64,000 nucleotides of DNA from an uncultured Saprospiraceae bacterium (GCA_964621185.1 CAZULM010000029.1:987-64986), one strand, 5' to 3'. Shown: positions 3,850 through 22,166, counted from the first letter of the stretch. Program-made: numbers and translations. The notes: a model not told the origin generated them from the letters alone.

Positions 3850-3872
3850 GGCGGTCGGGGGGGGCATTTATA

Positions 3873-3975
3873 CCTCACGCCGCTTAGTTTTGTGCATACC
3901 GATCTTTGTAATCAATTGAAGATCAGCTGAATCAATCATACTCAATCACAAAAATCAGGCGAATCATAGTATATT
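3873..3975 (+). repeat. Copy 1 of a dispersed ~100-bp intergenic element (phased AATCA motifs)
   Basis: About 93% identical to 15212-15313 and 21257-21358, in the same orientation. Starts 24 nt after the CotH stop codon. No ORF. Confidence 0.85.
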
Positions 3976-15167: not shown

Positions 15168-15211
15168 GCGAGGAGTTTGGACGGCAATTTGAGCGGGTTC
15201 ACCTTTTTATT

Positions 15212-15313
15212 CCTCACACCGCTTGGTTTTGTGCATGCCGATCTTTGTAATCAATTGAAAATCAGTTGAATCAATCATAATGAATCACAAAAATCAGGCG
15301 AATCATAGTATAC
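15212..15313 (+). repeat. Copy 2 of the dispersed ~100-bp element
   Basis: AATCA pentamers at 15249, 15260, 15269, 15273, 15283, 15292 and 15301. Starts 45 nt after the stop codon at 15167. Confidence 0.85.
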
Positions 15314-21213: not shown

Positions 21214-21256
21214 CCTGAAATGCTGAGGTGTCATTTTCGCTGCTAATAATATATAA

Positions 21257-21358
21257 CTCATGCCGCTTGGTTTTGTGCATGCCGGTCTTTGTAATCAATT
21301 GAAAATCAGTTGAATCAATCATACTCAATCACAAAAACCAGGCGAATCTTAGTATAGT
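21257..21358 (+). repeat. Copy 3 of the dispersed ~100-bp element
   Basis: Starts 44 nt after the stop codon at 21213. Lies between the convergent usp and nosY genes. Confidence 0.85.
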
Positions 21359-21398: not shown

Positions 21399-22166
21399 CT
21401 ACAAGTCCTTTCCCCTAAACACCCGCACCGCCAACACAATCGGCACAAAAACCCAGGCCAGCAGCACCACCGCCGCAAACGCGATGCCCAATCCCGTGCC
21501 CAACAATTCCTGGAACAGCGCCCCCGTGTACCCCATGAGGGCCGAAATGTCCATTTGAAGCAGCACCAGCACTCGCGCCAGGTCGATGGGGTTGAGCGCC
21601 ACCACGGCCAACATGGCCTTTTCCAAGGGGTAGTCGGCAAAGGCGAACATCAGGAAAAGCACGATAGCATCGTACAGCAAGGCAAAAAAGAACCAGGACA
21701 GCAGCGCCACCCCGATGCCCTTGGCCTTGTCGCGGGTAAGCACCGAGGCCAGCACCGCAATGGAAACAAACACCACCGACAATGCCGCCGCCGCCAGCAC
21801 CAGAAACAGGCCCGTGGCATTAGGCGAATAAATGGCGACCGGGATGCCAATGCCCATCAGCACGGCCAGCTTCATGGCCGCAGCCAAGCCAAAAAACTCG
21901 CTCCACACGATCACGCTGCGGCGTAAGGGCTGCGCCGCCAGCAGCTCGATAAACTCGTAGGAATTGTAAAAATGAATGGTGGAAAAAACGATGCTCACCA
22001 AGGGGGCGACAATCAGCACGATGTTCAGCAAGCCAACCATGCCCTTGGTGGGGTCGTCACCGAGGTTGAACAGCCCAAAGGATACGGCAAACAAGAACAA
22101 TGTGTAGCCAATCAGTATCCGGTTCTGTAGGATGTCTAACAGAACATATTTAACGATGCGCAGCAT
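21399..22166 (-). CDS. nosY: ABC-2 type permease NosY
   Basis: Six hydrophobic segments. Overlaps the nosF stop by 17 nt. Last gene of the nos operon. Confidence 0.8.
   Translation of the reverse strand: MLRIVKYVLLDILQNRILIGYTLFLFAVSFGLFNLGDDPTKGMVGLLNIVLIVAPLVSIVFSTIHFYNSYEFIELLAAQPLRRSVIVWSEFFGLAAAMKLAVLMGIGIPVAIYSPNATGLFLVLAAAALSVVFVSIAVLASVLTRDKAKGIGVALLSWFFFALLYDAIVLFLMFAFADYPLEKAMLAVVALNPIDLARVLVLLQMDISALMGYTGALFQELLGTGLGIAFAAVVLLAWVFVPIVLAVRVFRGKDL

Follow-up and report, generated by a model that had tools for sequence, protein, structure and literature searches.

An intergenic 105-bp repeat of a Saprospiraceae bacterium as a MITE of the IS630/Tc1-mariner kind with a phased AATC array

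The window analyzed here is a 64,000-nucleotide stretch of one contig (C29) of the host genome (G000), a draft of 6.4 Mb in 127 contigs with 52.8% G+C and 99% completeness. The nearest public relatives of one window protein come from uncultured Saprospiraceae/Lewinellaceae MAGs, and T9SS sorting domains detected by Pfam in window proteins are consistent with Bacteroidota. The window contains three copies of a short repeat, termed here family A, all in the same orientation, as the original prediction had it, and on the plus strand. Copy 1 (3869-3973) lies 19 nt downstream of the stop codon of a CotH/T9SS-cargo gene and 209 nt upstream of the next start codon (4183). Copy 2 (15208-15312) follows the stop codon of a 177-aa ORF by 40 nt and precedes by 207 nt the start of a gene for a 1003-aa APH/M23/aminotransferase protein. 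Copy 3 (21252-21356) is located between convergent genes, 38 nt after the stop codon of a usp gene (21213), with the end of an ABC-2 permease gene at 21399 on its other side. The copies had been predicted with starts 4-5 nt too far in and ends 1-2 nt too far out; with the revised limits, the distances from the upstream stop codons, previously put at 24-45 nt, are 19, 40 and 38 nt, and the pairwise identity, previously put at about 93%, is 91-92% when counted on the alignment of the three copies. The CotH and usp (tandem Usp) assignments of the upstream genes were confirmed by Pfam, whereas the 177-aa protein, described as a lipoprotein, has no Pfam match. The repeat has no ORF, as predicted: by inspection, stop codons are found in every frame.

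The limits of the element were derived from the information content of 175 genomic copies aligned with their flanks, which rises abruptly at TATAC and falls after GTATA. Together with BLAST, this defines a family A unit of 105 bp that includes a TA at each end, that is, a core of 101 bp (TAC...GTA) flanked on both sides by the duplicated TA. The family consensus in G000 is TATACCTCACGCCGCTTGGTTTTGTGCATGCCGATCTTTGTAATCAATTGAACATCAGTTGAATCAATCATACTCAATCACAAAAATCAGGCGAATCATAGTATA, and the three window copies are 94-96% identical to it (96.2%, 95.2% and 94.3% for copies 1, 2 and 3). The left TA is at 15208-15209 in copy 2 (3869-3870 and 21252-21253 in the other copies) and the right TA at 15311-15312 (3972-3973 and 21355-21356); their assignment to a target duplication rests on the nested insertions and reciprocal empty sites described below. 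The left terminal inverted repeat (15208-15237 in copy 2, plus strand) has the consensus TATACCTCACGCCGCTTGGTTTTGTGCATG. The right one (15283-15312, minus strand), read inward, is TATACTATGATTCGCCTGATTTTTGTGATT, a degenerate copy of the left repeat in which TGATT replaces the left TGGTT (positions 17-21) and GTGATT replaces the left GTGCAT. The match between the two repeats of family A is poor (about 65-70% identity by eye), and the element is asymmetric; in the subfamilies of two other genomes (G024 and G224), the ends match better, at about 71-76% by eye. Between and partly within the repeats lies an array of seven AATCA pentamers (15249-15305 in copy 2, plus strand), which start exactly where they had been predicted, at 15249, 15260, 15269, 15273, 15283, 15292 and 15301, with spacings of 9-11 bp and one step of 4 bp. 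The last three pentamers overlap the degenerate right repeat, whereas the inner ones extend the spacing of about 10 bp through the core.

The original prediction found no terminal inverted repeats and only weak self-complementarity, and both statements are wrong. The element has the termini TATAC...GTATA together with an imperfect inverted repeat of about 30 nt, and the two ends of the plus strand pair in a fold of -25 kcal/mol (z = -3.6), with an outer TATAC/GTATA stem and an inner stem that pairs positions ~13-26 with ~79-93. The minus strand yields a z of only -1.1, because its G-U pairs are lost. The pairing of the ends recurs in the folds of family A, its subfamilies and family C (z = -3.2 to -5.6), but not in family B. 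The segments that pair are those of the inverted repeats, which suffices to explain the fold without a function at the RNA level. The element also carries a GATC at positions 33-36 (15240-15243 in copy 2), which is kept in family A of both G000 and G018 and in family B, and family A of G000 has two GANTC sites (61 and 93). Methylation-sensitive transposition is known for other IS families.

The BLAST search of the 6.4-Mb genome with family A yielded 212-219 matches (183 full and 36 partial), far in excess of chance, with 109 on the plus and 103 on the minus strand. Gene contexts were obtained with our simple codon-usage ORF caller (4518 genes, 87% coding), on which the gene starts used below rest. 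The full copies are overwhelmingly intergenic: 168 of 183 (92%) lie in non-coding sequence, which makes up 13% of the genome (p = 3e-129 compared to the coding fraction). Among family A copies, 64 are in tandem gene pairs and co-oriented with them, 34 are in tandem pairs and anti-oriented, 35 lie between divergent and 29 between convergent genes. Co-oriented copies lie at a median of 69 nt after the upstream stop codon (1 to 604 nt, 5th-95th percentile), and only 18 of 93 copies fall in the 20-50-nt band that is seen in the window. The proposed fixed position after stop codons thus does not hold genome-wide and is a small-sample impression. A search of the whole 64-kb window against Rfam gave 0 matches at the gathering threshold.

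Family A has two relatives in the same genome, families B and C, and the three are homologous over their full length at about 60% identity, with 185 (A), 107 (B) and 35 (C) near-full copies. Family B (104 bp with the TAs; TATAGCCAACGCAAAGTGGTTGTGAAAATC...AATCACTTTAATCACAGTATA; e.g., G000:C5:101279-101378 and G000:C66:4976-5077) has the AATC array and the AATCAYAGTATA end in common with family A, and its good repeat matches that of another IS630 subgroup. Family C (103 bp; TATACCCGAAAAAAAGTGGTTTGCGAAAAC...AAATCACTGGGATCCTGGTATA) has 108 total matches in G000, of which about 35 are near-full, and its good repeat resembles the repeat of a 1108-bp IS630-family element of genomes G017, G070 and G006.

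Evidence of mobility comes from three nested insertions among the partial BLAST matches. On contig C68, a family A copy is interrupted by another A copy; on C5 and C66, the 100-bp core of family B is inserted, in opposite orientations, into A copies at the single TA at positions 41-42, and this TA now flanks the B insert on both sides. The clearest case is the comparison of G000 with its nearest congener, the sister species G001. The spacer at G000:C33:9758-9862 contains an A copy, and in the orthologous spacer on G001:C53 a B copy occupies the neighboring TA, at a distance of 9 bp. When each element is removed together with one TA, the joined 122-nt flanks of the two genomes align without gaps (103/122 identical). 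Thus, each genome provides the empty site for the insertion of the other, and the duplication is exactly TA. The flanks of insertion sites show a mild preference for T before and A after the TA. The three window copies are uninformative in this respect, since their flanking genes are present in G001 but synteny is broken at all three spacers; an exact look-up of two flanking proteins for strain variants found neither on record. At another gene end, G001 has an A-type copy (G001:C526:2440-2617) about 25 nt further upstream than the G000 copy at C27:16727-16830 near the 3' end of the homologous gene; the G001 copy replaces the last codons of the related gene. The two species acquired their insertions close to this gene end independently. 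The 29-mer of the family A repeat is found in 27 of 114 genomes of the genus, and full-length relatives, searched for with a sequence-only model built from an eight-sequence alignment, in 4 of 150 other Saprospiraceae genera sampled. Such a patchy distribution across genomes is typical of mobile DNA.

The left end of family A links it to the IS630 family of transposases. Its first 30 bp are also found in small elements with two good repeat copies (on contig C31 of G000 and in G024, G017 and G080). A complete 1147-bp element at G024:C1:3331938-3333084 has the ends TATACCTCACGCCG[C/T]CAAGTTTTCAGCATG, and its repeat is identical to the left end of A at 25 of 30 positions, including the first 15 bases. 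This element encodes a protein of 366 aa that scores 185.9 bits on the NCBIfam model NF033545 'IS630 family transposase' (cut-off 100) and also matches Pfam DDE_3-type relatives. In G018, a homologous transposase gene at a contig end is followed directly by this repeat at its 3' end. The IS630-family elements of G017, G070, G006 and G044 have the repeat pattern TATA[CG]CC..CG.AAAGTGGTT, which matches the good end of families B and C. In G000 itself, the only DDE_3 match is an internally deleted IS630 relic of this latter group, 724 bp long (C2:107339-108062), flanked by TA and with 29-bp inverted repeats TATAGCCACCGYGAAGYGGATGTGAAAAA that match family B. No homologue of the G024-type transposase was found by tblastn in the 99%-complete G000 draft, where only this unrelated relic matched, and a search of G000 for inverted repeat pairs with A ends 0.3-6 kb apart detected none that enclose a transposase. 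One candidate of this type in another genome, a pair of inward A-type repeats 705 bp apart (G045:C5:547584-548288), was rejected: it contains an ordinary gene of about 140 aa (MALNFNKYVQDGEQF...) and no transposase. The same segment also encloses half an A-type element, so that it may be a composite or the result of two independent insertions. The cognate transposase of family A may have been lost from G000 or may be unassembled, and the current mobility of the family is unproven because the draft contains no such gene.

Taken together, the TA duplication, the inverted-repeat ends and the IS630-family partners indicate that the element is very probably a non-autonomous MITE of the IS630/Tc1-mariner kind. 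It is a non-coding sequence of 105 bp with many dispersed copies, terminal inverted repeats, a target duplication, and filled as opposed to empty sites, and its ends match those of an element of a congener, rather than of G000, that encodes an IS630-family DDE transposase. We consider the identification as an IS630-type MITE with TA duplication secure; the family is a new one of a well-known element kind. Mechanistically, an IS630-family DDE transposase would mobilize the element in trans by cut and paste, recognizing the 30-bp left repeat and the weaker, degenerate right one.

One feature that sets the element apart from a plain MITE is its array. In family A, the ATC cores stand at element positions 34, 43, 54, 63, 67, 77, 86 and 95, and the best period for this spacing is 10.5 bp, with a resultant of 0.72 that is reached by 3% of random placements. 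The phased pentamer array, as originally predicted, is real, and it is kept in diverged subfamilies and genera. The subfamily consensuses of G018 and G024 are only 61-72% identical (64-76 of 105 positions) to each other and to that of G000, and their ATC cores are at the same positions or shifted by one. Family B has ATC at positions 34, 42, 53, 67, 76, 85 and 94, and the same layout is found in copies from two other genera (g112 and g108, genomes G224 and G220). AATC columns are invariant in 17 of 28 cases, compared to 12 of 39 for the remaining internal columns (p = 0.024). When eight sequences of families A, B and C from five genomes are aligned, little more than the termini and the ATC cores is left without variation. 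In G000 itself, ATC positions are only slightly less variable than the others (2.7% versus 5.2%), a difference that is confounded by base composition and subfamily structure. No AATC array was seen beside the repeats of complete IS copies, so that the pentamers, if regarded as extra transposase sites, were not inherited from the parent element. The ATC positions are kept in separately amplified lineages although the bases between them drift, without clear constraint on individual copies, which suggests that selection acts on the transposon itself, i.e., on transposition competence, and not at each locus. Our favored guess is a role in cis: the array would assist the pairing of two ends that lie only about 100 bp apart, possibly through accessory contacts of the transposase or a host protein on one helical face, or through curvature. 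If the array does bind a protein or is bent DNA, as first proposed, this property would belong to the mobile element itself rather than to a host iteron.

Direct repeats of this type are not confined to families A, B and C. A copy of A on contig C4 contains an unrelated palindromic element of 132 bp (G000:C4:209755-209886) with ends CACACTACTGGACATTTT... and a 9-bp target duplication (CAATCATAC); it consists of inverted arrays of GCAGATTTTAC-like units, and similar arrays are found at C16:70400, C26:34048, C37:45272 and in G001. Another repeat family of G000 consists of four tandem units of about 9 nt, AATCCGTNN (C26:10882, C26:11123, C45:43918, C80:19716, C16:52112, C16:53458 and C20:4915), and these arrays often face an inverted ACGGATT x4, forming long hairpins. 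Arrays of AATC/GATT direct repeats are thus common to several small, unrelated repeat families of this genome. In the G018 subfamily of A, positions ~74-82 are an exact TTATCCACA, the DnaA-box consensus, and G000 has TCAATCACA at the same place; the G018 sequence is probably a by-product of the inverted repeat (ATGCACAAAA versus ATCCACAAAA).

The orientation of the element relative to genes is not random. Copies located between tandem genes are co-oriented versus anti-oriented with them in ratios of 65:35, 40:20 and 23:12 in the three families, i.e., about 2:1. The genome-wide comparison comes out mostly in favor of the plain MITE that the original prediction had named as its refuting outcome, with the exception of this co-orientation. 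The gene boundary next to the array end is a start in 205 cases and a stop in 112, compared to 144 and 173 at the end with the canonical repeat (Fisher p = 1.5e-6). The positional regularity lies in the array end facing gene starts, which is the opposite end from the one originally singled out. In G000, a start codon is found within 5 nt of the array end in 32 cases and of the other end in 2; within 20 nt, the numbers are 67 and 11 (p = 6e-11), and within 50 nt 89 and 24, and it should be noted that up to 31 elements classified as genic could hide cases of the opposite orientation. A count that does not depend on the gene caller points the same way, with a smaller effect: an ATG is found 0-5 nt after 44 of 189 exact array ends (23%) versus 27 of 228 other ends (12%). 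Given the available intergenic TA sites, 33-47 insertions in the two orientations together are expected within 20 nt of a start, whereas 78 are seen, split 67:11. Many of the adjoining ATGs open, by eye, signal peptides or TAT signals, and one ORF that starts 2 nt after the element matches an AI-2E transporter profile from residue 10 onward. The orientation of the element also correlates with the sign of the local GC skew (p = 0.005), which is inseparable from gene strand on draft contigs. A neutral minimal MITE would neither show a 2:1 gene orientation bias nor need a conserved array; hence, something more acts on this element.

A second effect, compatible with a cis role of the array, concerns the region preceding start codons in G000. 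Bacteroidota do not depend on Shine-Dalgarno pairing to initiate translation but on adenines upstream of the start and on low structure (PMC6847099). The native regions at -40 to -1 in G000 have 33% A (up to 46% near -11) and 15% G, and the last 40 nt of the element contain 19 A and 4 G in family A, and 18 A and 1 G in family B. In score, the array end is like the native regions at -40 to -4: among native upstream regions, family A reaches the 41st and family B the 78th percentile, and the other end only the 2nd-3rd. The A-rich, G-poor array end, which resembles native pre-start regions, may be tolerated or retained before start codons and so become the leader of a gene. Taken to its conclusion, this reading makes the element an exapted, portable 5' leader or promoter of the host, perhaps with a -7-like box in the left repeat, that would drive or permit expression of the gene on its right, a proposal that we regard as doubtful; equally tentative is its corollary that the array is kept because an A-rich sequence of low structure suits the position before the start in a phylum that does not use Shine-Dalgarno pairing. 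The excess of start-adjacent insertions, the real N-termini at the adjoining starts and the native-like composition argue for such a role, as does the presence in left repeats of TGGTTTTG or AATTTTTG, one mismatch from TAnnTTTG. However, no exact TAnnTTTG or properly spaced -33 TTTG was found inside the element, and TAnnTTTG occurs upstream of start-adjacent copies at about the background rate in a low-powered count. Family C shows no leader-like difference in score between its ends, about 75% of copies are not start-adjacent, the stable RNA hairpin of the plus strand should hinder initiation, and the gene starts come from a simple ORF caller. None of the window copies is start-adjacent: two are separated from the next start by about 200 nt, and the third is between convergent genes. 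A crude ATG-proximity test in G024, G045, G018, G001 and G224 gave 40 of 352 (11%), about the chance level, so that the start-codon adjacency is so far specific to G000. A combined reading, which we put forward tentatively and consider unlikely in full, is that of a Saprospiraceae MITE superfamily in which one repeat would have been swapped for a conserved, phased AATC array with a double use. The array would be a cis requirement for transposition of so short an element, through bending or binding at multiple sites, and it would be a leader that allows insertion a few bases from start codons in one orientation only.

Three further explanations were considered. The array could be bound by a host protein (for example, a nucleoid protein, a response regulator or DnaA), and the roughly 200 copies of the element would then form a dispersed binding or titration network independent of transposition. 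The phasing on one helical face, the conservation of ATC positions across genera, the AATC-type arrays of unrelated small repeats and the exact TTATCCACA of the G018 subfamily are compatible with this, but individual copies decay roughly uniformly, and conservation between amplifying lineages selects transposability, not function per locus. Furthermore, no such array was found at a non-repeat locus such as a promoter or origin, no candidate protein was identified, and the outer pentamers are accounted for by the degenerate inverted repeat, which makes a host array improbable. It is still less probable that the element is a 3'-UTR element, terminator or sRNA, that is, a transcript-level signal after stop codons. 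The window copies, 19-40 nt after plus-strand stops, the strand difference in folding and the co-orientation with neighboring genes had pointed in this direction. Genome-wide, the distances are spread over 1-604 nt, a stop lies within 20 nt of only 33 (inverted-repeat end) and 23 (array end) of 277 elements, and 35 copies of A are between divergent genes; the hairpin is not followed by a U-run, the window has no Rfam family, and the paired regions are transposon inverted repeats for which no RNA function is needed. A REP/REPIN palindrome spread by a RAYT (IS200/IS605-like) single-strand transposase would share the length of about 100 bp, the long imperfect hairpin, the intergenic location and the hundreds of copies. 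To our knowledge, REPINs and IS200/IS605 elements make no target duplication, so that the demonstrated TA duplication and reciprocal empty sites contradict this origin; in addition, the ends correspond to inverted repeats of the IS630 family, and the element is asymmetric and not a symmetric doublet of short REP units. We attach practically no weight to it.

As an IS630-type MITE, the element is routine, a piece of ordinary selfish DNA. Its identification accounts for about 500 small repeats (families A, B and C; about 0.8% of the genome), which an annotation would otherwise list as intergenic elements of no known kind or take for regulatory RNAs, and it flags likely assembly break points in Saprospiraceae MAGs. 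Outside RUP, a bacterial MITE that is tied to a transposase family and has clean reciprocal empty sites is rare. Less routine are the internal architecture, which is kept across genera, and the finding that in G000 a third of the gene-start-facing copies reach to within 20 nt of the start codon and do so in one orientation only. If this adjacency is functional, it would be a tractable case of transposon sequence adapting to the translation-initiation region of Bacteroidota, and if the double use of the array is real, dozens of G000 genes would have had their 5' leaders replaced.

Among known systems, the plant Stowaway MITEs are likewise of the Tc1/mariner type with TA duplication; they are eukaryotic and unrelated in sequence. 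Internal, MITE-specific sequences of Stowaway elements reportedly raise transposition relative to the autonomous element, and we treat this parallel as a lead for the role of the array, not as evidence. Compared to IS630-family insertion sequences, the element shares the TA duplication and the inverted repeats, and elements of congeners score as IS630-family; it differs in being non-autonomous, in its degenerate second repeat and in the array, which is absent from full-length elements. In ISY100, an IS630-family element of Synechocystis, an N-terminal double helix-turn-helix of the transposase binds the repeats, and the transposase alone suffices in vitro (PMC2170065). The Correia elements of Neisseria (CREE/NEMIS) are similar MITEs of 100-155 bp with TA duplication and TATA-type termini; they are co-transcribed with their neighbors, and their end promoters, central IHF site and hairpin RNA affect adjacent genes (PMC2649163, PMC2229807). 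They have long, good repeats (the 26-bp Correia repeats) and a single IHF site, whereas family A has phased pentamers and no IHF-consensus site: WATCAR-N4-TTR was not found on either strand of A, B or C. Beyond TATA, the termini of Correia and family A differ by our reading. The transposase of Correia is not established, whereas the partner of family A is of the IS630-family type. The closest described analogue is RUP of S. pneumoniae, a 107-bp MITE ascribed to IS630-Spn1 by the same kind of argument (PMC2229807). The two are alike in length (107 versus 105 bp), in their roughly 100-200 intergenic copies, IS630-type ends and TA insertion, and in having no ORF (PMC2229807). RUP is reported to target IS elements, and no such targeting was seen for family A. 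RUP is of another sequence and phylum, and its repeats are short and symmetric, with no reported internal motif (PMC2229807), whereas the Saprospiraceae element combines one good 30-bp repeat with one degenerate repeat and a phased AATC array.
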